Assembly: GCA_004321885.1 (NCBI GenBank)
Contig: SCQK01000007.1
Span: 64,001-128,000 of the forward strand
Length of the DNA: 64,000 bases
DNA from: Patescibacteria group bacterium
Lineage (GTDB): Bacteria > Patescibacteriota > Patescibacteriia > Magasanikbacterales > GWA2-37-8
Reading direction: 5' to 3'
The notes beneath the pieces are model-generated. The model did not search any database. It worked only from the letters and a program-made list of their open reading frames with translations, and was not told the DNA's origin. Made by a program: the position numbers and the translations under genes. Shown here piece after piece: positions 3,755-39,376 of the stretch (the stretch's first letter is position 1; each line of letters begins with the position of its first letter).

Positions 3755-4231
3755 ATGACATTTCGTCGTCGCATCGGTATCGTCTTCGTCTGCATCCTGC
3801 TCGGGTTCGTTGTTCTGTTCGTGGCAGGACCCGGTTTCATGGTGGTCGACAACAGGGACATCCGAGCCGCCGATGATGTCTCAGCGGAGGACATGGCCGC
3901 TTGGCTGGGAGATGCTGGCTGGCAGGCGGATGCTACAAAACATTACTATCTCATCAACGTATCGGGAGTTGTGCATTCTCTCTCGCCGCGATCGCTCAAA
4001 TACCTCGAGGCGCGCATCACAAATACCAAGGCGAATCTGCGCGTGTACGCCGTCACACCGTTATTGGGTTTTGTCGTTGAACCGTTTCGACTCGGAACGG
4101 TGAGCCTCCTGTTTCTGATAGAGACACCGGAAGAGCGAGACCTAGCGGACATCATGCGGCAGTTCAGCTTCTGTGTACGTCAAAGTGATCAGAGCGGGCT
4201 ATGTATGCCCGTGTTGTCGGGGACACGTTGA
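3755..4231 (+). CDS. hypothetical membrane-anchored protein (island cargo)
   Basis: ATG at 3755 followed by a TM helix (IGIVFVCILLGFVVLFVAG); the longer ORF call from 3599 is Ser/Thr/Pro-rich and an unlikely start. Confidence 0.35.
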   Translation: MTFRRRIGIVFVCILLGFVVLFVAGPGFMVVDNRDIRAADDVSAEDMAAWLGDAGWQADATKHYYLINVSGVVHSLSPRSLKYLEARITNTKANLRVYAVTPLLGFVVEPFRLGTVSLLFLIETPEERDLADIMRQFSFCVRQSDQSGLCMPVLSGTR

Positions 4232-5763: not shown

Positions 5764-7455
5764 ATGTTACTACATGCGGATAACACGCTGGGAGTCGGAC
5801 AACCGGAAGGAAACAACCGGGTACGAAGGACGTCCCAGAATCCCCGCATGCGCGCAGTTGCAAAAATTTTTCTTCTTCTGGCCGGCTGGCTTATCGTCGT
5901 TTCCATTGTTTCCAATTCGTTTGACAACGACCTGGGCTGGCATTTGCGCTTTGGCCAAGACGCCCTAAGCGGCGATTTTCAGTACACCGACAGTTATACC
6001 TGGGGCTTTGCCGGGCGCGAGTGGGTAAACCACGAATGGGGGGCCGATATTTTATTTTGGATTATTTACAGCCGCGTCGGCTACTTCGCCCTGGCGCTTC
6101 TCATCGGCACGGTAATCTGGGCGGCATTTGTGCTGGCGCCTCTTATTTTTGCGCGTTTCAGTTTAGGCGCTCTCGCGATTTCGCTGCTCATGGCCCTGGC
6201 CGCGGGCTTTACTTTTGTCACGCGCGTCTCCATGGCGGCGCCGCTGTTTTTTGTTTTGCTCTGGTTTTCGCTGGAAAGAAAAAAATATTTTTTCCTGTGG
6301 CCGATTTTATTCTGGGCGTGGTCTTTTCTGCATGGTAGTTGGATACTGGGATTTATTTTAATAAACATTTATTTGGTTGGAGAAATAATTCCCTCCACTA
6401 TTAGAGCCTGCCCTGAACTTGTTTCAGGGGGAGGGACAAAAGGTGGAGTTGGCAAGAAGCTCTGCTGGCAAATCATTTCCGCGGCCGCGATTCTTCTCAA
6501 TCCGTACGGCATAAAACTCTGGCGCGAGGTGCTCTCCTATTTTATATACAGCGACTACAAGCGGCTGATTATTGAATGGCTGCCAAGCTACAGTTACCCC
6601 ATTCGCTGGTGGCCCATAATTATCGCGGGAGCGGCCGGCGTTTTGCTTTACCTGGGGTGGAAAAACAAAAAAGCGTCTTTGACCCACGTATTGTTATTTT
6701 TGGCCATATTTTTAGCCGCCATGCAATACAAGCGCAACAATATTTTGCTGACGCTCGTTTGCGCGCCGATTTTCGCAATAGCTTTGGAAGAAACAAAGAA
6801 GAAACTACTCTCAATTGCCATTCCGAACCCGAAGGGTGAGGAATCCCTTCGCCTTACGAGTAAGTTTAAGGGATTCCTCGCTCCGCTCGGAATGACAACG
6901 GCGATTGTCCTCTTCGCCGTCTCAGCCGTTTATTACCTTCCCCGCCTGCGGGCGCAAAATGACGTCTGGCAGGACAAAAATTTTTTGACCCGGCACGGCT
7001 TTCCGGTCAAAGCCGTTGATTTTGTAAAAAAACTACCGGCCGGAGCGAAAATTTTCAACGAATTCGGCTGGGGCGGTTTTTTTATCTGGCAAACGCCGCA
7101 AGTAAAAATGTATTTTGACGGACGGGGCGCGGCCACCTGGCGCGACGCCAATGGCGAATTCATGCTTAAAAAATATCTGCGCTACCTTGGCGAAAAAAAA
7201 CAGTTGCCCGAATTAAGCAAAACTCCGGCTGAATATATTTTGCTGGAAAAAAACAGGCTGGCCCTGCCGCCGCCCGGCTGGAGCGACAAACTGTTTTTCA
7301 AAAAAGAAAACTTGGCAAAAATAATGGAGCGCAAGCCGCCGTTGCTTGAAACCGACCTGACGAAAAGCAGTGATTGGAAACTGATTTACAGCGACGAGAT
7401 GACGAACATTTGGAAAAGAACCGCGGACATGAATTCCGGCTCAAGCCCGGAATGA
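5764..7455 (+). CDS. polytopic membrane protein, possible GT-C-type glycosyltransferase
   Basis: at least 10 hydrophobic helices; D-N-D-containing first loop (SFDNDLGWHLRFGQ); contains in-frame palindromic repeats at 6391-6440 and 6838-6897; the true start may be the internal Met at about 5845. Confidence 0.45.
   Translation: MLLHADNTLGVGQPEGNNRVRRTSQNPRMRAVAKIFLLLAGWLIVVSIVSNSFDNDLGWHLRFGQDALSGDFQYTDSYTWGFAGREWVNHEWGADILFWIIYSRVGYFALALLIGTVIWAAFVLAPLIFARFSLGALAISLLMALAAGFTFVTRVSMAAPLFFVLLWFSLERKKYFFLWPILFWAWSFLHGSWILGFILINIYLVGEIIPSTIRACPELVSGGGTKGGVGKKLCWQIISAAAILLNPYGIKLWREVLSYFIYSDYKRLIIEWLPSYSYPIRWWPIIIAGAAGVLLYLGWKNKKASLTHVLLFLAIFLAAMQYKRNNILLTLVCAPIFAIALEETKKKLLSIAIPNPKGEESLRLTSKFKGFLAPLGMTTAIVLFAVSAVYYLPRLRAQNDVWQDKNFLTRHGFPVKAVDFVKKLPAGAKIFNEFGWGGFFIWQTPQVKMYFDGRGAATWRDANGEFMLKKYLRYLGEKKQLPELSKTPAEYILLEKNRLALPPPGWSDKLFFKKENLAKIMERKPPLLETDLTKSSDWKLIYSDEMTNIWKRTADMNSGSSPE
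6391..6440. repeat. composite palindromic repeat (CCCTGAAC-TTG-TTTCAGGG core) inside a CDS, in frame
   Basis: near-identical copy at 7738-7795 inside comFC. Confidence 0.8.
6838..6897. repeat. family-A-variant palindromic element (GAGGAATCCC...GGGATTCCTC...CGGAATGACA) in frame
   Basis: related half-copies at 14483-14520, 15248-15285 and 39070-39105. Confidence 0.75.
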
Positions 7456-11907: not shown

Positions 11908-13101
11908 CTATAATTCTTTCTCCATCGCCACTATCGCTTTTATTTCTTCTATCTTTATCCCGCCTTTTTCCGTCGCTGTCTGCGCCAGGGTTTTTCTGTC
12001 GGCCAACGCGCCGCACACCGCGTCCATGTATTCCAAATAAAGAGGGCTCTGTTTCCAGGCGGCCTGCGCGTCCATATATAATAGGTAGGATTCGTCGCGC
12101 AGGTTGATGAATTTTTGTTTCAGGCGCTGGCCCGCCTCGGCGCAGTTTTGCGCCAAACGGCGAAAATCCGTCAGACTAATATATTTTACCTCATCTATGG
12201 GTCCCATTTCAACAGGCGGAGCGGAAATATCCCGCATGCTCTGTTTTACCGGCGCGCTTCCTAACTTGAACGACGAGGATTGTGTAGCCCCCTCCCCTCT
12301 TAGGGAAACCGTCATCTTCCCCTCCCCTTGATAAGGGGAGGGCTCGCCACCACACCAAAATTTTTGGTGTGGTGGCGAGGGAGGGGCAGTCGCAACCGGC
12401 TTCTCTTCAGGCGCCAAAAGCGCGTGCAAAAGCTCGTTGGCTTTTTTCTTGCTCTCGGGCACAGTTGGTCCCCCCCCTCCTTTAGAAGGAGGGGGCAAGG
12501 GGGTGGTCTTGACCTTTTCTGAATGTTCAAACGGGTTAAACGGAGTTGCTGTCGCCGGCAACAATACCTCTTCGCACGCTCCCGCCGCTTTCTCGGCCTG
12601 ATTGGCCGTAAAACCCATGCCACCGTCTTTTATGGAACGCAATAAAATATTTTTCGTTTCTTCGGGCGAGCGCACGTCTTTGAGGCGCAACTGAATAATA
12701 CTGCGCAAGCGATTGATAAAGTTGGGCGGCACTGGAAAATTTATTTTTTTGAGCGCCTGGTCCACCTGGCTTAGGCGCGGCTCGCTCAATTTCGGCGCGT
12801 CGCCCTTGGCCGGCGCCGGCTCTTCCAAAGGCGACCGAAAATCATTATTCGCTTTCTTCGTTCCCATCATCGGCGCCGTGGGATACGGCGGTCGTTTTGG
12901 CGCTACTTTCACTCCCTCCCCTTTTAGGGGAGGGGCAGGGAGTGGGGTATTGTGCGCCGCTTGTCTTACCTGCGACAAAGGCATGCGCACAAAACTGCCG
13001 TCGGCCTTTTTTACCAAAATTGTTGGTTCGTTTGGCATATTATTTACCCCTGCCTCCCTCCCCCTTAAATAAAGGGGGGGACAGGAGGGGGTATTATTCA
13101 C
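11908..13101 (-). CDS. Pro-rich hypothetical protein with four in-frame GC-hairpin repeat insertions
   Basis: the first 20 codons are encoded by a repeat, so the likely true start is MPNEP at about 13038; repeat-encoded segments at 12286-12345, 12470-12500 and 12912-12950. Confidence 0.45.
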   Translation of the reverse strand: MNNTPSCPPLYLRGREAGVNNMPNEPTILVKKADGSFVRMPLSQVRQAAHNTPLPAPPLKGEGVKVAPKRPPYPTAPMMGTKKANNDFRSPLEEPAPAKGDAPKLSEPRLSQVDQALKKINFPVPPNFINRLRSIIQLRLKDVRSPEETKNILLRSIKDGGMGFTANQAEKAAGACEEVLLPATATPFNPFEHSEKVKTTPLPPPSKGGGGPTVPESKKKANELLHALLAPEEKPVATAPPSPPHQKFWCGGEPSPYQGEGKMTVSLRGEGATQSSSFKLGSAPVKQSMRDISAPPVEMGPIDEVKYISLTDFRRLAQNCAEAGQRLKQKFINLRDESYLLYMDAQAAWKQSPLYLEYMDAVCGALADRKTLAQTATEKGGIKIEEIKAIVAMEKEL

Positions 13102-14425
13102 TAACTAATTTTAAGTCTTTCGCCACCTGCGCGGCCAAGGATTCCACGCTGTCAAATTTTTTGGGCAGGCGCAAATAACGTTCGGTGCGCGCTTCTATTT
13201 TTTTTCCATACAAATCGCCCGCAAAATTCAAAACATGAACTTCCAGGCAGTCTTTTTTTGTTAAAGAATTATATCCATAATATAGCAAGCCGGAATACCC
13301 CTTCCCCTGCCCCTCCCCTAAAAGGGGAGGGTGGCTATCGGTGGTTCCTCCCCTTTTTAGGGGGAGGACAAAGGAGGGGGTATTCGCAATGAAAGCGACG
13401 GAGCACGTATACAATCCCCTGGGCAAATTTTTGGCCAGCGCCACGTCCAAGTTGGCCGTGTGAATCCCTACTTTATCCCCTTGTCCATAGCCGGGCAAAA
13501 CCGCGCCGGCCACCACGCGCGAACGGTGTAAAAACACAATTCTGGTTACGGCCGCCGCCAGCGCCGCCGCTCCCAAAATTTGCGTGGCCGATAACGCGTT
13601 GCCATTTAAATAATAATCCAAAATAATGGCGGACACGGGCCAGGACAGCTCGCACAAAGTCGCCACCGAAGCGGTGATTTTTTTCAGGCCGAAATAGTAC
13701 AAAAACATGGCCGCGGCTCCGGATGTAAAAACTATAATGATTAAAGTCGTCCACTGGGCCGCGCCCACCGACGGCAGAGAGGAAAAATAGCGCGCCGCCG
13801 GAATCGCCATAATCAAAACCGTGAGCCCAAAGCGCAAAGCCGCCAGCAGGCCATAGCTGATATTTTTTAGGGAATATTTTCCAAAGGTGGTGGCCGAACC
13901 CCAGGCAAACGCGGCCAGCATGGAAAAACCGGCGGCAATGGGAACAGCCGACATCGCGCTAGAAACCGCGAACGGATTTTTGAAAGTAACAAAATATCCC
14001 GCGACCAGCGCGAGCGGGGCGTAAAAATAAAACGAGCGCGGAAATCGCTCGCGTAAAAATATGGCGGCCAAGATAATCGCGAAAATCGGCTGAAATTTTT
14101 GCAAAAGAATCACTACGGAAATATCTTTGAAGCCCGTGGCAAACAAGGCCTTGGTGATAAAAATCGTGCCCAAAGCCCCGCCAAACAAGGCCACCCAAAA
14201 AATTGCGACCCACTCTTTGCGTTTTATCAGTTTTAACTGGGCGCGGTAAACAACCAAAAACGGCAACAAGGCGACAAAACCGAGCAGGTGCTCCAAAAAC
14301 ACCAGCAAGGCCGGTTGCAAGGAATACAAACGGGGTCGCAAAAAAGTGCCGTCCAAACTCCACAGCAGAGCGGCCAGCGCCACGGCCATTGCCCCGATAA
14401 TCACGCTATTTTTTTTCATAATCAT
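13094..14425 (-). CDS. EamA/DMT-family transporter joined to a riboflavin-kinase-like C-terminal domain
   Basis: 10 TM helices, then GYGQGDKVGIHTANL ... LEVHVLNFAGDLYGKKIEARTERYLRLPKKFDSVESLAAQVAKD resembling the RibF kinase domain; a repeat-encoded insertion at 13305-13385. Confidence 0.5.
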   Translation of the reverse strand: MIMKKNSVIIGAMAVALAALLWSLDGTFLRPRLYSLQPALLVFLEHLLGFVALLPFLVVYRAQLKLIKRKEWVAIFWVALFGGALGTIFITKALFATGFKDISVVILLQKFQPIFAIILAAIFLRERFPRSFYFYAPLALVAGYFVTFKNPFAVSSAMSAVPIAAGFSMLAAFAWGSATTFGKYSLKNISYGLLAALRFGLTVLIMAIPAARYFSSLPSVGAAQWTTLIIIVFTSGAAAMFLYYFGLKKITASVATLCELSWPVSAIILDYYLNGNALSATQILGAAALAAAVTRIVFLHRSRVVAGAVLPGYGQGDKVGIHTANLDVALAKNLPRGLYTCSVAFIANTPSFVLPLKRGGTTDSHPPLLGEGQGKGYSGLLYYGYNSLTKKDCLEVHVLNFAGDLYGKKIEARTERYLRLPKKFDSVESLAAQVAKDLKLVSE

Positions 14426-14480
14426 TTGTCATGCTGAACCACCAGCTGGCGGTTGTTTCAGCATCTTCGCTTTCTTCGTC

Positions 14481-14596
14481 ACCCCACTGTCATTCCGAGC
14501 GGAGCGAGGAATCCCTTATACTACGTTAACAGTTTCTATATCCCCCTTCTTCAAATGCAACACAATCGCCAGCGCCTCGCACAGCCACGAGGCGCG
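14481..14596. repeat. about 115-bp direct repeat, copy 1 (remnant of the 3' end of gene 15271-16254)
   Basis: about 90% identical to 15236-15350; encodes ASWLCEALAIVLHLKKGDIETVNVV* on the minus strand. Confidence 0.8.
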
Positions 14597-14723
14597 TTGT
14601 CTCACACATTAATAATGATTGTGAATAAAAACTGTGGACAAAACGCCTTGACAAAAAACTCTTTTCTTGATATATTAGATTCGGATAGTAACGATGAAAA
14701 GACCCTCGTAAGAAGATACGTGC

Positions 14724-15248
14724 TTACGGGGTGCTTTTTTTATACTCAACTTTATTCCTCAAATCACTAACAAAACTAATTTTGCCGCCGGCCACTTTCC
14801 GCAATAAGTACGAGCAACTGGACGGCGCGGGCGCGATCAAGTGGCAAAACTTATTTTGTTTTCGCAAATAGTCAACTAAACAATGAAAATCACCATCGCC
14901 GCTGACAATTACGGCCTGATCATAATTCTGATATTCTATCATCGTGTGTAAAACCAATTCGGCGTCACAATTCCCTTTTACTTCACCGTCTTTCAATATT
15001 AGAGTTGGTTTAAATATCAAAATGTAACCAACCTCCTGAAGAAATTTATACAACTCCTCATTGCCAAATAAAAAACCAATGAACATAAACGCCTTCGCGA
15101 CGCTATATTTGTCTTTCAAATACCTGCGAAAACGAAAATAATCCAGCTTCCAACCAATGCGCTGCATACTGAAATATAGATTCTGACTGTCTATAAACGC
15201 GAAATTGTTTTCTTTCATACTTCGTTTCCCTCCCCGCCCCACTGTCAT
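14724..15248 (-). CDS. NYN/LabA-like domain protein (predicted RNase)
   Basis: FIDSQNLY...KGNCDAELV...SGDGDF motifs. Confidence 0.65.
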   Translation of the reverse strand: MTVGRGGKRSMKENNFAFIDSQNLYFSMQRIGWKLDYFRFRRYLKDKYSVAKAFMFIGFLFGNEELYKFLQEVGYILIFKPTLILKDGEVKGNCDAELVLHTMIEYQNYDQAVIVSGDGDFHCLVDYLRKQNKFCHLIAPAPSSCSYLLRKVAGGKISFVSDLRNKVEYKKSTP

Positions 15249-15350
15249 TCTGAGCGGAGCGAGGAATCCCTTACACTACGTTAACAGTTTCTATATCCCC
15301 TTTTTTCAAATGCAACACTATCGCCAGCGCCTCGCGCAGCCAAGAGGCAT
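15236..15350. repeat. about 115-bp direct repeat, copy 2 (authentic 3' end of gene 15271-16254)
   Basis: see copy 1. Confidence 0.8.
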
Positions 15351-16254
15351 AAGCCTCGCGCTCCTCTTGTCCGCGATAAATATTCTGCAAGAATTTTTCC
15401 GCCTCCAAAATTGCCGTGTCCTGATTGTAGCCACGGCCGGAAAAATCTTTGAGCAAAACCGATAATTTTCTGCTTTCATCTCCGGCATCGCTCGTCGGCA
15501 CGCTCTCGTTGCTTTGCTCCAACGATTGTATGATGTTCCGGCTCATGGCGTCAAAATCCGCGTCGCTCTTGCCGCCCAAAAATTCCCCCAGATAAAATCG
15601 CGCCGGCACGCCGGTCACGATGGCGCTATAAAAATAATTCTGCAATAAAAATTGTCTTTCATTCGCGCCAAACTGGCCAAACATCTTCCACACCGCCTGC
15701 AAGAGCATGGAAAAAATAAAAGCGTCATCCCAAAAATATTGTTTTTTAATATCTTCTGATTTCGAAACAGCGGGTAGTGTGCGCACAAACATTTCGCCGA
15801 TTTCTTTATCCGCGCCATTTCGCAAAAAATCCCCGAGCGTCGCCACAAAAACCAAATCATTATAAAATCCGCCTTCGCCTTTCAAAATAATTTTCAATTC
15901 TTCTTTTTCGTATGGCTTGACGCCAGCGCCCAAACCCAGAGCCGCTGAAATAAACGATAGCTGTAGCGCCAATGCGCCGGCGATTTCGCTATCGTCTGGC
16001 TTATCCATAAATTCGGCGACCAATTCGGAATCCAAAAACAAAATTATTTCTTTTTCAATCACGTCCATTGCTCCGGATAACTCTTCCTTAGTCGCTCGCG
16101 CGCCAATTTGCGAAGCGTAATCAAACATTTTCTCGTTTGCGCCCTTGGCAATCAAATCCGCTTTGGCTTTTTCCAATTCCAAAAACGCCTCGCGAACATC
16201 CTGCCACGAACACCTTCTAAACTCGCATACTTTGCGCCTGCCGAGGGTGAACAT
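15271..16254 (-). CDS. hypothetical protein (T4SS-locus)
   Basis: 327 aa, acidic, no motif recognised. Confidence 0.5.
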   Translation of the reverse strand: MFTLGRRKVCEFRRCSWQDVREAFLELEKAKADLIAKGANEKMFDYASQIGARATKEELSGAMDVIEKEIILFLDSELVAEFMDKPDDSEIAGALALQLSFISAALGLGAGVKPYEKEELKIILKGEGGFYNDLVFVATLGDFLRNGADKEIGEMFVRTLPAVSKSEDIKKQYFWDDAFIFSMLLQAVWKMFGQFGANERQFLLQNYFYSAIVTGVPARFYLGEFLGGKSDADFDAMSRNIIQSLEQSNESVPTSDAGDESRKLSVLLKDFSGRGYNQDTAILEAEKFLQNIYRGQEEREAYASWLREALAIVLHLKKGDIETVNVV

Positions 16255-16263
16255 AAAGCAATT

Positions 16264-16578
16264 TTATTCCTCTCCTTCGTCAGATTTATCAAAAAAATTT
16301 TCAACCAACTCTGACAAATCAAGACGCCTTCTTTCTTCTGCACTCTTTTTATTAAATTCTAAAACAGAATGCAAATCTTGTTGTTGCCTTGATGTCAAAT
16401 TTCGACTCTCCAGTTCTTTAACGACCAGTTCCGTCGGCGCCTTCAAATTATCATATATGTATCTTTCATTACTATTCGGGGCTACACGCGCGCATAACAT
16501 TCTAAAAACATCCTTAGTTGTATTTTTTTTGAGCTCTGATTTAAAATACCCTTCATTTTCTTTTGTATCGATAGTCAT
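16264..16578 (-). CDS. hypothetical protein
   Basis: 104 aa; tightly packed in the operon. Confidence 0.4.
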   Translation of the reverse strand: MTIDTKENEGYFKSELKKNTTKDVFRMLCARVAPNSNERYIYDNLKAPTELVVKELESRNLTSRQQQDLHSVLEFNKKSAEERRRLDLSELVENFFDKSDEGEE

Positions 16579-16600
16579 AATTATTTTTCATCTATAACTT

Positions 16601-17794
16601 TCAAGCAAGTGGTTGCGCGAAATTACTAAAAATAAAATCTTTCTTCTTTTCGTCAAAATATAATAATGGCTCTCCGGATTTATAATAATCCATATAAATA
16701 TCATTCACTTGCAGCAAATTTGAAAATAAAGGTTCGCTGTGGTAATCCGTTCCGTCCAATTTAATAACGGATTTAATGTAGGCCGCCGCCTGTTCGGCTG
16801 ACACCTTCGCGAACCATTTCTTTAAATTCCGCGTGTCTTCATCCGTAAGGGGAACATGCAAAATGGCATACGTTATGTCCGCAGTCAGATTTGATTTTGT
16901 TATATCAATGTTATTTATGTCAATCCCAATAATGCTTCCGTTCATTATATGCAAATATAACTTCAAGATAATTCCGATTATCAGGCCGTCCGCTTCGCTG
17001 GTCAAATTAAAATATTTATCATTACTCAAAAAATCTAAAAGTTGCATTTCGTTCAAATCCGACTGTGCAAAATTAACAAAGATGGTAATCCAAAAATGAA
17101 TCGTATATAAATCCATTTCATTCTGCGGACCGATTATTGTCTGATTGTCCAACAGAAAACCAGCTAATTCCAAACTGCGTTTGGTTCGAACATCAAACAA
17201 ACTGGAGTCGCTCTTAAGCATGTCCGCCAAAATCGCTTCAATATCAAACCCGATTTCAATCGCCAAGACGATCAAACTGCTATGTAAAAAATAATCTTGT
17301 TCCGTAGAATTAAGCCGGCCAAAAAAATAACAGCATAAAACGACATAAATCCGCCGCAAGAACGCGGCCAGTTCCGCATCTATTCCTTCAAAAAATAACC
17401 CGGCTGCGGAATTTTTTGCCAGCTGGCGTAATAAAATCAAAACCTCATTCTGCTTGCCGAAATTTATCGCTACATAAACCGTGCGAATTAATTTATCGCG
17501 CTGAAGCGAATCCTTCGTGTCGGTCGGTTTGAATTTTTTTATTTCTTCCAATGTCAATTCACCGACCGCGGGATTTCGGCCGCGCATTGTTTTTACCAGA
17601 TTTTCACAATCGCCAAAATTTTCCTTTTTCGTCGTGGAGGTCAGCGGATAAAACTGATACGCCAAAGCTTCTTCCCAGGGAAGTAAATCAAAACCTTTGA
17701 TTAGTTGCTCAAATTCGCTCTTGTCTTTCGCTGAAATATTAAGCAAACTAACAAAGGAAGACAGCGTAAAATTTTCTCTGACAATTTTAGCCAT
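16601..17794 (-). CDS. hypothetical protein
   Basis: 397 aa; no motif recognised. Confidence 0.5.
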   Translation of the reverse strand: MAKIVRENFTLSSFVSLLNISAKDKSEFEQLIKGFDLLPWEEALAYQFYPLTSTTKKENFGDCENLVKTMRGRNPAVGELTLEEIKKFKPTDTKDSLQRDKLIRTVYVAINFGKQNEVLILLRQLAKNSAAGLFFEGIDAELAAFLRRIYVVLCCYFFGRLNSTEQDYFLHSSLIVLAIEIGFDIEAILADMLKSDSSLFDVRTKRSLELAGFLLDNQTIIGPQNEMDLYTIHFWITIFVNFAQSDLNEMQLLDFLSNDKYFNLTSEADGLIIGIILKLYLHIMNGSIIGIDINNIDITKSNLTADITYAILHVPLTDEDTRNLKKWFAKVSAEQAAAYIKSVIKLDGTDYHSEPLFSNLLQVNDIYMDYYKSGEPLLYFDEKKKDFIFSNFAQPLA

Positions 17795-17801
17795 AAATTA
17801 A

Positions 17802-19649
17802 TTATTTTCTCTTTCGCGATTTCGGCTTTTTAGGAGGCGTTTGAACTTTAATATTATCTAACAATTGCCTCTTGGCTTCCGCGGAAAATAATTTTAACAT
17901 CTTAATAATTGCACCAATGCCCTCCGGCGGGCTCAATTGCGATACGCGCAGTATTAAACTGTCGTCGGCCTTGCCCAATAATTTTTCCAGGTATTCTTCC
18001 AAAACATAACGCTGGTTGTCTATGGTAATTTCCCCGGCCACTCCTTTTTCAAAATAAATCTCGGCCGCTTGCGCCGCATCATCGCCGAATAGCTTATTGA
18101 ATAGCCCGGTAAAATTTGTTAGCAGCTCATGGGATAAACTTTTAATTTCTTCTTCGCCTGCCTGTTCCTCGCCTTCTTCTCCCTCCTCCAACGCCTCTCT
18201 GGCCTGCTCCTCATCAGTGGCGCCCTTATGTTCCACCATGGCCGCCGCGTCCTTAATATCTCCCATTTTTACCCTCGCGTTTAAATAGGCGACGAGCTCT
18301 TTAATGTTATAAAAATATTGTTCTTCCACCGGAAAGCCTTCTCTTTCTTTTTTCAAATTCCTGCATCTTATCTTTAAGCATATTTTTTTATTCCCCCAGT
18401 CAAATCTCTCGTTGATCGCTTCGCCAGCAGTGAAAAAATCAGTGCCAGCGGCCTTGGCCAAGCACATCAGCCAATCGCGCGGATTATTGTATAAAAAAGG
18501 CGCGATAATATCCGTAAATATTTTATCATCGGCTTCATCCTGCTCAAGACCATAGCCCCTTATATCTCTTAAGGCTTCGTCATACGTGCTGTGCAGGCCT
18601 TGATAAATCTGACCGCGACGATTATTTCCAATGTCAATGATACGATAATCTTCTTTCGGGCCGTTTGTCCCGTCTTCCTTCGGCCTTTCCAATTTTTGCG
18701 TATAAACGACAAAATTTTCCTTTGGCCCCAGGGCCACGGCCGCGTTCTGAGTGCGGGCGAGGGTTCTCTCATGCTGTCTTTCGTTGGAAATATTTTTCCT
18801 GTGCATTTGCAATAATGGCAATTCAAATTCCACCGTGGTGCCGGTATATTCGTTAAATTTCCCTATCTCGTGCACGTGGCCTTCGGCCAAAAATGGAATG
18901 CCTTTTTTTCTAAGATCGGTCCGAGCATCATTTTTGGACATGGTCTCGCAAACCGGCAGCCATAAAAATTCAGCCGCTCCGTTCACCTTGGTTTCTCCGC
19001 TGGCAAGAAATAACGTATGCGAAGCATTTTCAATGTGGTGCTTATCCAAAGCGCTATCGCGCAAGCCGCCAATGTACTGAAAGCCAATCTGATTTGCCCT
19101 GATTTTATCCAGATACCCCTGTGTATCAAAATCAACCAAAGTGTCAAGCGGACATTTTTCGCGCAGGTCAATCGGCCCTTTTTTTGATTGCACGACGAGC
19201 TCTTCACCGTTAAAATATTTTTCTATTAGCGTCTGGTCGTTAATCTTGTTCAGTCCAAGCATTCTATTCATTTCTCTTATGCACGCAAGCTGGGCCAATT
19301 GGCGCAGGTCTGCTTTTAGCTTTTTGCCCGCGACCTCAATCTTTACCGTCATTTCAGCTTTGTCGGCAATGCCTTGATATATATCCGCGGGGTTGTAGCC
19401 GCCGCGCCAGATTTCGTTCGCTTCTAAAAAGTCGCGCATGCGATGGTGCTCCACCAAAAAATCCGAATCATAGCCGGTCATTGATAATAATTCAACATCA
19501 GCCACTTTCGCCGTATCCGAGGTGGCGTTTTTCCAGCCTATTTTTTCGCCCAACTTATGATAAATATGGTCCATGATGGAACCGGTTTTCCCTTCCGATG
19601 CCGGGCGCTGTTTTTTTTCAACTTCTGGGTTATGTATTTCGCTAGCCAT
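17802..19649 (-). CDS. hypothetical protein with acidic C-terminal tail
   Basis: 615 aa; EGHVHE His cluster; Glu-rich tail; no confident domain call. Confidence 0.5.
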   Translation of the reverse strand: MASEIHNPEVEKKQRPASEGKTGSIMDHIYHKLGEKIGWKNATSDTAKVADVELLSMTGYDSDFLVEHHRMRDFLEANEIWRGGYNPADIYQGIADKAEMTVKIEVAGKKLKADLRQLAQLACIREMNRMLGLNKINDQTLIEKYFNGEELVVQSKKGPIDLREKCPLDTLVDFDTQGYLDKIRANQIGFQYIGGLRDSALDKHHIENASHTLFLASGETKVNGAAEFLWLPVCETMSKNDARTDLRKKGIPFLAEGHVHEIGKFNEYTGTTVEFELPLLQMHRKNISNERQHERTLARTQNAAVALGPKENFVVYTQKLERPKEDGTNGPKEDYRIIDIGNNRRGQIYQGLHSTYDEALRDIRGYGLEQDEADDKIFTDIIAPFLYNNPRDWLMCLAKAAGTDFFTAGEAINERFDWGNKKICLKIRCRNLKKEREGFPVEEQYFYNIKELVAYLNARVKMGDIKDAAAMVEHKGATDEEQAREALEEGEEGEEQAGEEEIKSLSHELLTNFTGLFNKLFGDDAAQAAEIYFEKGVAGEITIDNQRYVLEEYLEKLLGKADDSLILRVSQLSPPEGIGAIIKMLKLFSAEAKRQLLDNIKVQTPPKKPKSRKRK

Positions 19650-38752: not shown

Positions 38753-39376
38753 CTATCGCTTATCGCTTATCTTCACGCACCCTTGCCTGATAATTTTAAT
38801 TTTTTCAAACTTCACGCTTACTATCGTACTTGGTTTTCTGCGCGGCAGTTTGCCGGCGTCCAGCAAAAAATCCGGCGCGTATTTTTTGCCGGCGAACTTT
38901 TTTATGATATCGCTACTATTATATATATCCCCTTCTCCGCCTATATTGGCCGAGGTGGCGACGAGCGGCCGGCCGAGCGCGGCGCATAATTTTTTGGCCA
39001 ATGGATGCGACGTGACGCGCAGGGCGAGGGTGTTGTTTGATACGACACCGGCGGCCAGACGAAAAGGGATTCCTCGCCGCGCTCGGAATGACAATGAAGC
39101 GACAATCGTGAGCGGGTCGTGCCAATATTGTTTTGCCAATTTTCCAATCGTCTTGTTCCAAACTAAATATTCTTTCGCCATGGCGACAGAAGACGCGACA
39201 ACCAAAAGCGGTTTGCTCTTTGGCCGCTTTTTTATCTTAAAAATTTTATCCACTGCTTTTTGATTCGCCGCGTCGCAACCCAAACCATACGAGGTCTCGG
39301 TGGGGAAAACGACAATTTGACCACTCTTCAAGGCAATAAAAATTTTTTCTATCTCACTTTTTTTCAAGATTATCAT
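38753..39376 (-). CDS. tsaC: L-threonylcarbamoyladenylate synthase (YrdC/Sua5 family)
   Basis: FPTETSYGLGCDA...KIKKRPKSKPL; an in-frame family-A half-element at 39070-39105. Confidence 0.7.
   Translation of the reverse strand: MIILKKSEIEKIFIALKSGQIVVFPTETSYGLGCDAANQKAVDKIFKIKKRPKSKPLLVVASSVAMAKEYLVWNKTIGKLAKQYWHDPLTIVASLSFRARRGIPFRLAAGVVSNNTLALRVTSHPLAKKLCAALGRPLVATSANIGGEGDIYNSSDIIKKFAGKKYAPDFLLDAGKLPRRKPSTIVSVKFEKIKIIRQGCVKISDKR

Follow-up and report, generated by a model that had tools for sequence, protein, structure and literature searches.

A putative mobile module of a NYN nuclease gene and a predicted antisense RNA between duplicated ends of a host gene in a Patescibacteria genome

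The window, which is the whole stretch of 64,000 nucleotides analysed here (contig SCQK01000007.1, positions 64,001 to 128,000, from a Patescibacteria group bacterium), carries a series of minus-strand genes in the order 327-aa gene, NYN gene, EamA-riboflavin kinase gene, 397-aa gene, PrgI, TraC-like gene and VirB4-like gene. The 327-aa gene has no Pfam or NCBIfam match. The features of the locus are the following.

13094 to 14425, minus strand: EamA transporter fused to a riboflavin kinase; the gene adjoins the 327-aa homologue in the empty-site relative L002
14465 to 14593, minus strand: repeat copy 1, a dead remnant of the 3' end of the 327-aa gene, just upstream of the EamA-riboflavin kinase gene
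14594 to 14647, no strand: unique spacer of 54 nt between copy 1 and the small RNA promoter, the right end of the putative inserted unit
14648 to 14676, plus strand: sigma-70-type promoter of the predicted small RNA (TTGACA, 17 nt, TG-TATATT; 11/12 matches), facing the 3' end of the NYN gene
14683 to 14744, plus strand: predicted small RNA of about 60 nt, antisense to the 3' end of the NYN gene, with a 5' tail, a hairpin and a U-tract
14724 to 15218, minus strand: NYN gene (LabA-like, PF01936), 164 aa, with a likely start at ATG 15218 and GGGAGGG 8 nt upstream
15220 to 15348, minus strand: repeat copy 2, functional, comprising the 3'-terminal 26 codons of the 327-aa gene, its stop codon (15271-15273) and 51 nt downstream
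15271 to 16254, minus strand: 327-aa gene of a T4SS-like operon, whose 3' end is the duplicated target

The two repeat copies form a two-copy direct-repeat family of 129 nt in the repeat search, with 90% identity and a spacing of 755 nt, in agreement with the preliminary description of the locus, which had placed direct repeats around the NYN gene at coordinates off by only 2-16 nt. The ungapped BLAST core of the repeat covers 112 nt at 93.8% identity (E=1.6e-44), and in a pairwise alignment a fainter similarity extends about 20 nt past the main match, as far as the NYN ATG, and at copy 2 it reaches about 15200. On the minus strand, copy 2 encodes ...ASWLREALAIVLHLKKGDIETVNVV, the true end of the 327-aa open reading frame, and copy 1 encodes ...ASWLCEALAIVLHLKKGDIETVNVV with no gene body attached; the two peptides are the same except for one R to C change, and 13 differences separate the two DNA copies. 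These translations bear out the earlier distinction between a true gene end and a dead remnant, and the position of the NYN open reading frame confirms that it lies between the two. In each copy, about 30 nt belong to a REP-like palindrome (15240-15270 in copy 2, 14485-14515 in copy 1), a dispersed motif with two further copies in the window (6870-6900 and 39066-39096), and the other approximately 100 nt are found in the two copies only. The 54-nt spacer shows no conservation in other loci. A separate Logan assembly (SRR8426592, locus L040, 3838 nt) is 100% identical to window positions 14489-18326 and covers copy 2, the NYN gene and nearly all of copy 1, including the copy-specific differences; since this independent assembly reproduces the arrangement, the repeat structure is not an assembly artefact.

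The NYN gene is an intact gene for a predicted NYN/PIN-like nuclease, as judged from its sequence and a structural model. The match to PF01936 scores 54.1 bits against a cut-off of 24.2 (E=3.3e-14) and spans residues 18-152 of an alternative 174-aa reading that starts at 15248. That start, adopted in the preliminary description, lies 10 codons too early, given that the homologues and an independent Logan gene call both begin at MKENNFAFID (ATG 15218) and that the 10 extra codons fall inside the repeat; the start is thus probably 15218. In an alignment of 30 NYN homologues the residues D10, N13, D85, E87 and G107-D108-G109-D110 are invariant, so the catalytic acidic residues that had been proposed as a check are present, and they align with those of the nearest solved relative of the window protein, VPA0982 (PDB 2QIP), whose function is unknown. 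The modelled fold is a PIN-like alpha/beta/alpha arrangement and the model is a confident one. No promoter of the gene's own was found at the window locus, and the gene is probably transcribed by read-through from the operon; in a subset of loci a -10 box precedes the NYN ATG by 4-8 nt, which implies a leaderless NYN mRNA there.

The inserted nuclease gene of the preliminary description is accompanied by a second gene that the description had overlooked, as the cassette also carries a convergent gene for a predicted small RNA (sRNA) directly 3' of the NYN gene. Its promoter (14648-14676) is the top-scoring one in a 4-kb scan, and in the predicted RNA a single-stranded 5' tail, GGAUAGUAACGAUGA, leads into a long hairpin (14696-14739) with a U-tract; this terminator overlaps the NYN gene at its last codons and stop codon (14724-14726). 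The fold has an energy of -18.8 kcal/mol (z = -3.1). L001, with the closest NYN protein (72% identity), has the promoter, 5' tail and hairpin as well, and the changes in the stem are compensatory. A covariance model, described below, gives a weak match at 14685-14746 on the plus strand (16.5 bits, E=0.27), the model being derived from another subfamily than the one to which the window sRNA belongs; the assignment of the window sRNA is based chiefly on its promoter and fold and on the comparison with L001 and L007, and the RNA is presumably transcribed. Rfam 15 returned two tRNAs only for the whole window at the gathering score, and nothing credible at E<=10 for the sRNA region of the window and of L005. 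Several other identities for the RNA were considered and rejected. For hammerhead (CUGAUGA/GAAA), C/D-box, K-turn and sarcin-ricin-loop mimicry, inspected by eye, the seeming matches lie in stem positions that covary or are missing the second box; a mini-ORF in the sRNA (MKRPS in the window) is not conserved across subfamilies; and the resemblance of the sRNA tail to the NYN start region is a same-sense similarity, not a complementarity, and does not recur in other loci.

The pairing of the two genes extends far beyond this genome. About 100 of 118 related loci, belonging to more than 10 phyla, have the NYN+sRNA pair. A set of 35 genome loci comes from Omnitrophota, Patescibacteria, Saccharibacteria, Armatimonadota, Elusimicrobia, Chloroflexota, proteobacterial MAGs and others, and in 30 of these the same succession of promoter, tail, hairpin and U-tract lies directly past the NYN stop codon. 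The shared promoter, on the strand opposite to NYN, has the form TTGACA/T, 16-18 nt and a TATAAT-like box, and the shared RNA combines a tail near AUCACGAUGA with two stems, an outer one of 7 bp and an inner one closed by GGUUUCGUCC, an internal loop between them, and a U-tract. A covariance model was built from 14 of the layout-bearing sequences. When searched against 39 sources (the window and 38 earlier loci), it gave 30 matches, all on the strand opposite to NYN and directly after it; among 82 further loci (80 metagenomic, 2 viral) it gave 73 matches, 72 of them opposite in strand and directly after the NYN gene, with two matches at L120, one per tandem module, and a single weak match (E=0.8) located elsewhere. 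The NYN proteins themselves are 55-72% identical across Patescibacteria, Omnitrophota, Chloroflexota, Armatimonadota, Elusimicrobia, proteobacterial and other MAGs, and the tight subfamily accounts for 7611 database matches.

Support for a conserved RNA structure comes from base-pair substitutions. In alignment A5, 90.4% of the cells are paired and there are 65 double-sided changes, and in alignment A7, with 69 distinct sequences, 92.8% are paired and there are 124 such changes, the paired percentages being biased towards the model because both alignments were fitted to it; none of 500 shuffles reached these values in either alignment, and slid controls gave far lower pairing in both. The excess of G-U over A-C cells (28 : 5 in A5, 67 : 11 in A7), like the fixed strand and position of the matches, is independent of model fitting, and the total of 95 G-U pairs versus 16 A-C marks the strand antisense to NYN as the RNA strand. 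At most loci the hairpin has no U-tract in the NYN direction, so that NYN transcripts should cross the RNA gene and would be fully complementary to the RNA. Literature searches for a published NYN-associated antisense RNA, toxin-antitoxin pair or mobile element gave nothing relevant; no description of the NYN+sRNA pairing or of its repeat-flanked insertions was found within the literature and databases searched.

The genomic contexts of the module are diverse. Its neighbours elsewhere include topA/xerC, sppA/glyA, asd, efp, ftsH, priA and defence genes; no recurring protein partner was found among them, and the sRNA gene alone recurs. In four Patescibacteria (the window, L001, L007 and L030) the NYN gene lies just upstream of a g397b-PrgI-TraC-VirB4 block, and the modules of L001, L007 and L030 occupy the equivalent operon position without long repeats. 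Related operons at L002 and L003 lack the NYN gene. L002 carries homologues of the 1254-, 615-, 397- and 327-aa genes and then the EamA-riboflavin kinase gene, in the order of the window, and the stop codon of its 327-aa homologue lies 8 bp from the EamA-riboflavin kinase gene. This distant relative lacks NYN, as the preliminary description had proposed to look for, and together with the intact 327-aa gene of the window it supports an insertion or duplication event; a closer empty-site relative was sought without success, the 327-aa protein having two homologues only (35-36% identity) in 5.8 billion proteins. What has to be modified is the notion of one simple recent event, given the modules of L001, L007 and L030 without long repeats and the second, decayed module of L007. 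Empty sites are also available for L009, whose relatives L123 and L124 share its divergent TPR and GNAT genes and have, in the intergenic region, a single copy of the repeat core that is duplicated around the L009 NYN gene.

Signs of accretion and decay are seen at other loci. Tandem modules occur at L007, L049 and L120, and at L007 the full module is followed by a second, decayed NYN gene (residues 4-64) that retains its own sRNA; truncated NYN genes also stand beside a kept sRNA at L039, L036 and L038. On the other hand, synteny of the NYN gene is stable in Chloroflexota and some Alphaproteobacteria, and a Chloroflexota syntenic group has the module between a PLD+SNF2 helicase and an Eco57I-like methyltransferase. 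Origins in known mobile replicons were rejected: a search of 2.9 M viral contigs gave 2 matches, GenBank phage records gave none, and plasmids of cultured bacteria carry NYN genes of only about 30% identity.

The duplication seen in the window has counterparts at other modules. Flanking direct repeats of at least 30 nt, tight around the module, are present in 8 of 79 testable loci versus 1 of 280 shifted control placements taken in the same loci (Fisher p=3e-5), a count that leaves aside L012, L056, L068 and L120, which fall outside the test geometry; overall, about 10-15% of modules have repeats. The duplications differ in kind and in length (23 to about 330 nt). At L012 the 3' end of a convergent hydrolase gene is duplicated (49 codons and about 180 nt), at L106 a stretch of 66 codons close to the 5' end of a DegV-like gene, and at L102, L077 and L042 codons of the downstream gene (the first 15, codons 3-17 and codons around 29-40, respectively), so that at L077 and L102 host start regions are duplicated in front of NYN; at L009 the repeat is intergenic DNA and 100% identical over 41 nt. 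The flanking repeats are host DNA and not element ends, and in each of these loci one copy is still joined to the gene body, so that the host gene survives. The limits of the unit between the repeats are consistent: in most cases the left repeat stops 0-45 nt before the NYN ATG and the right one starts 15-90 nt past the sRNA -35 box, which results in a unit of about 600-640 bp, at whose ends no conserved terminal motif, inverted repeat or target motif was found. Integration targeted to tRNA genes was considered because of a T-arm/CCA-like repeat at L068 and L084, but neither ARAGORN nor Rfam detects a tRNA at these loci. A tRNA lies directly upstream of the module at L055 only.

Taken as a whole, the locus is probably, though by no means certainly, the product of a mobile two-gene module (NYN and antisense RNA) with a type I toxin-antitoxin-like architecture that was inserted with target duplication. 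Positions 14594-15219 would be the inserted copy of this compact, horizontally mobile module, which would have entered 78 nt before the stop codon of the 327-aa gene; some 130-150 bp of host DNA would have been duplicated, so that the upstream gene kept its whole 3' end (copy 2) and the dead copy 1 was left on the far side. The duplication may have been made in situ at insertion, by widely staggered breaks or template switching. Repeats of 23-46 nt, or 100% identical as in L009, fit such an in-situ duplication, and one kind of event suffices. Against the main reading, the NYN gene stands at the same operon position in four Patescibacteria, which could also mean an old vertical presence followed by later local rearrangement. 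The 10% divergence of the window repeats means that the insertion is not very recent; it nevertheless took place long after the divergence from L001, where the flanking proteins share 40-84% identity with those of the window. The unit contains no DDE, HUH, Ser or Tyr transposase, NYN being the sole supported open reading frame (NCBIfam gave no match and PADLOC weak NYN matches only), and neither the terminal inverted repeat nor the fixed-length short target duplication that are hallmarks of insertion sequences was found. No known recombinase is encoded in the module, and the enzyme behind the insertion is a matter of inference.

The first rival is a Campbell- or att-type integration, in which a circle of about 755 bp, carrying the host gene end from a related genome, was integrated by homologous recombination or by an integrase acting in trans, so that the two repeat copies would be allelic variants brought together from separate genomes and not an in-situ duplication. 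It is unlikely in our estimation, and several observations speak for it: in the window and L012 it is a flanking gene's 3' end that is duplicated, as at the att sites of integrative elements, the remnants are free of frameshifts, homology-directed targeting would explain the NYN gene at the homologous site in related Patescibacteria, and tandem modules fit repeated integration into a resident copy. Moreover, the codon differences between copies lean towards synonymous ones (5:1 in the window, 4:3 in L012, 6:6 in L106, 15:10 in total), the expectation being about 40% synonymous if only the live copy is constrained (binomial p about 0.03 overall, 0.16 for the window alone). This excess is weak, however, and the in-situ route is therefore kept in the main explanation; no integrase was found between or next to the window repeats, the first insertion would still have to come by another route, and the loci that duplicate 5' gene ends or intergenic DNA, the lengths of 23-46 nt and the identical 41 nt favour a fresh duplication made in situ. 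It is quite unlikely that the module mobilises itself, with the NYN/PIN-like nuclease nicking the target at a wide stagger or homing and the antisense RNA only limiting expression, given that conserved element ends or a target motif are absent, that repeats flank only about 10-15% of modules and that the strong purifying selection on NYN across phyla is unlike that of typical homing endonucleases; to our knowledge, no NYN/LabA-like protein cuts DNA for transposition or homing. Its boldest form, which we consider very unlikely, would make NYN and its antisense RNA a new autonomous mobile element whose PIN-like nuclease, in place of a DDE, HUH, serine or tyrosine enzyme, drives insertion with long and variable target duplications, hijacking host promoters just inside gene ends, the duplication keeping the host gene whole.

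The preliminary description had also linked the nuclease functionally to the DNA-uptake or T4SS-like operon, and the position upstream of the g397b-PrgI-TraC-VirB4 block in four Patescibacteria could indeed mean that NYN is a working part of that operon which processes incoming nucleic acid, the repeats being a by-product of rearrangement. Such a role is highly improbable, since the related operons of L002 and L003 do without NYN, most modules stand in unrelated contexts, the same module occurring in more than 10 phyla with unrelated neighbours of housekeeping or defence function, and only the sRNA gene travels with NYN. An artefact, or a plain local tandem duplication with no insertion, has a virtually negligible probability. 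The sequence does come from a metagenome-assembled genome and the repeat is partly a dispersed REP-like motif, but the independent assembly is 100% identical across the repeats including their 13 differences, the unit between them has homologues in more than 100 other loci, and Tandem Repeats Finder reports no tandem repeats in the region 14300-15500.

Returning to the inserted two-gene module, a possible function may be outlined by comparison with known systems. A constitutive antisense RNA would pair with the 3' end of the nuclease mRNA, or bind the protein, and thereby restrain the nuclease; this restraint would make the cassette hard to lose and the pair would work as a toxin-antitoxin or abortive-infection system. 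The strong promoter would serve the short structured RNA, and the NYN gene would have weak signals of its own or borrowed ones. From sequence and analogy, we infer that NYN may be toxic or an RNase and that the sRNA may neutralise it. The cross-phylum spread, the unrelated neighbours, the tandem copies and the truncated NYN genes with a kept RNA fit a selfish addiction or defence module, and the defence-island context in Chloroflexota, together with the weak PADLOC matches of NYN, is compatible with an abortive-infection role. The stable synteny in Chloroflexota and some Alphaproteobacteria fits a domesticated or host-beneficial role as well, and the mean column identity of 63% among the 30 NYN homologues, an unusually high conservation for a toxin, counts against the toxin reading.

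Type I toxin-antitoxin systems offer the closest architecture. The Bacillus subtilis pairs txpA/RatA and bsrG/SR4 are type I pairs with convergent, 3'-overlapping antisense RNAs, and the classical type I toxins are small membrane peptides. The module resembles these pairs in its convergent protein and sRNA genes, the RNA's own strong promoter, the 3' overlap via a shared terminator, the small, self-contained and scattered nature of the units and the decayed toxin genes beside retained RNA genes; it differs in having a predicted soluble NYN nuclease of 164 aa instead of a membrane peptide under 60 aa, and a protein far more conserved than known type I toxins. An antisense RNA in cis, with a promoter of its own and overlapping the mRNA, as type I membership demands, is found here at the sequence level, and since the protein is a 164-aa nuclease, the pair is type I-like in architecture and not a strict type I member. 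Type III systems (ToxIN, CptIN) likewise combine an endoribonuclease-type protein with a structured RNA in place of a protein antitoxin, and a defence role would be plausible for both. The type III antitoxins, however, are arrays of tandem repeats that precede the toxin on its own strand, and ToxN-type toxins have a different fold; the window has one convergent RNA and no repeat array, and so the pair is not type III. VapC, of the type II systems, is also a PIN-like metal-dependent nuclease in a small, mobile, addiction-type module, but it is neutralised by the VapB protein encoded upstream in its operon, and no such gene is present here.

As for the protein family, the LabA-like NYN proteins of COG1432/PF01936, including VPA0982 (2QIP), share the domain, the four acidic residues and the fold with the window protein. 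A classification of PIN-like domains from 2017 lists this group (NYN.COG1432, including 2QIP) as being of unknown function and mentions neither an antisense RNA nor mobility for it (PMC5499597).

Integrative elements and cis-mobilisable elements (CIMEs) have att repeats on either side, in which a target gene's 3' end is duplicated. The window module is like them in that its direct repeats duplicate a gene 3' end and keep the gene intact, and modules of this family, as CIMEs do, accrete in tandem at one site. Unlike them, it has no integrase in or beside the unit, which measures only about 0.6 kb, and at other loci the repeats (23 to about 330 nt) are copies of 5' gene ends or intergenic DNA, the att-like duplication of 3' ends being seen in the window and L012.

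The main interest of the locus lies in a conserved nuclease/antisense-RNA module with an unusual insertion footprint. For annotation, the module accounts for 'dead gene-end' remnants as a class and draws attention to an RNA gene that has gone unannotated beside many NYN genes. The recurrent host duplications point to insertion without a known recombinase, which bears on the cross-phylum spread of small selfish cassettes. Bacterial LabA-like NYN proteins are a very large family, and the module is common in uncultured lineages (CPR/Patescibacteria, Omnitrophota, Chloroflexota); if it is true that NYN pairs with a conserved antisense RNA, the two would make up a directly testable nuclease/RNA system, for which toxin-antitoxin activity, abortive infection and an RNA-controlled RNase are candidate roles.

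The T4SS-like operon of the window carries other features besides the NYN nuclease module. A single ORF encoding an EamA-type transporter fused to a riboflavin kinase lies inside the operon both in the window and in the empty-site relative L002, and is absent from the operons of L001 (the closest NYN relative), L003 (also without NYN) and L030, a distribution that marks this gene, too, as a lineage-specific insertion. The closest related operon, that of L001, holds a further small insertion, and in the window a GC-rich hairpin of 30 nt separates repeat copy 1 from the start of the fusion gene.

Features in and near the T4SS-like operon
Window 13094-14425, minus strand: EamA-riboflavin kinase fusion, one ORF (two EamA repeats plus riboflavin kinase domain)
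Window 14433-14462: GC-rich hairpin, GCTGAACCACCAGCTGGCGGTTGTTTCAGC
L001 5091-5438: 23S rRNA intervening-sequence protein family (PF05635) gene, between the g397b homologue and PrgI

Short palindromic (REP-like) repeats of two families are also dispersed through the window. The first, GGGATTCCTCGC..GCTCGGAATGAC, was observed four times against 0 expected (6870-6900, 14485-14515, 15240-15270 and 39066-39096). For the second, CCCTCCCCT-N4-AGGGGAGGG, 12 matches were counted where 0.06 would be expected; they fall at about 8 distinct sites, several of them overlapping on both strands (sites include 7705, 11442, 12319, 12914, 13310, 13347, 50949 and 55812). Several of these repeats are in frame within ORFs, as seen for 'KGFLAPLGMTT' in the 563-aa ORF at 5764-7455, and for stretches reading 'PPLKGEG'/'PLKRGG', which occur both in the 397-aa gene and in the riboflavin kinase part of the fusion gene.

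The sequences preceding the NYN gene are diverse among the compared loci. A subset carries a TATAAT-like box ending 4-8 nt 5' of the NYN ATG (L013, at 3942-3992, L047, L116, L112, L077, L027, L042 and L065), a proximity implying that the NYN mRNAs of these loci would be leaderless. In other loci the NYN gene has no promoter of its own and is located behind duplicated host start regions. In L068 and L084, only 6 nt separate the NYN start from a preceding sequence resembling the T-arm plus acceptor end of a tRNA (GTCAGTTCGAATCTGACCGTTGGCTCCA; L068 2932-2982, L084 about 2770-2826), with a second copy 1060 nt downstream in L068 (3992-4042); ARAGORN and Rfam found no complete tRNA or tmRNA at these sites.

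In Chloroflexota, the module of NYN and antisense sRNA genes lies between genes for 1076-aa and 1098-aa proteins (L017 754-7859), of which the first is read from its motifs as a putative PLD+SNF2 helicase and the second as a putative Eco57I-like N6-adenine methyltransferase. Such a context also occurs in L023, which shares long flanking homology with L017, and in L069, L085, L092, L105 and L109, five loci that have the upstream gene's end sequence in common. These surroundings look like a defence island.

An intact sRNA gene also stands beside NYN genes that are reduced to the N-terminal 61 codons or to the last 29 codons, or that have lost the N-terminal third.

Truncated NYN genes with an intact sRNA gene
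L007 5122-5407
L039 2532-2661
L036 1015-1372
L038 4001-4339

The sRNA genes kept in these four loci resemble orphan antitoxins.
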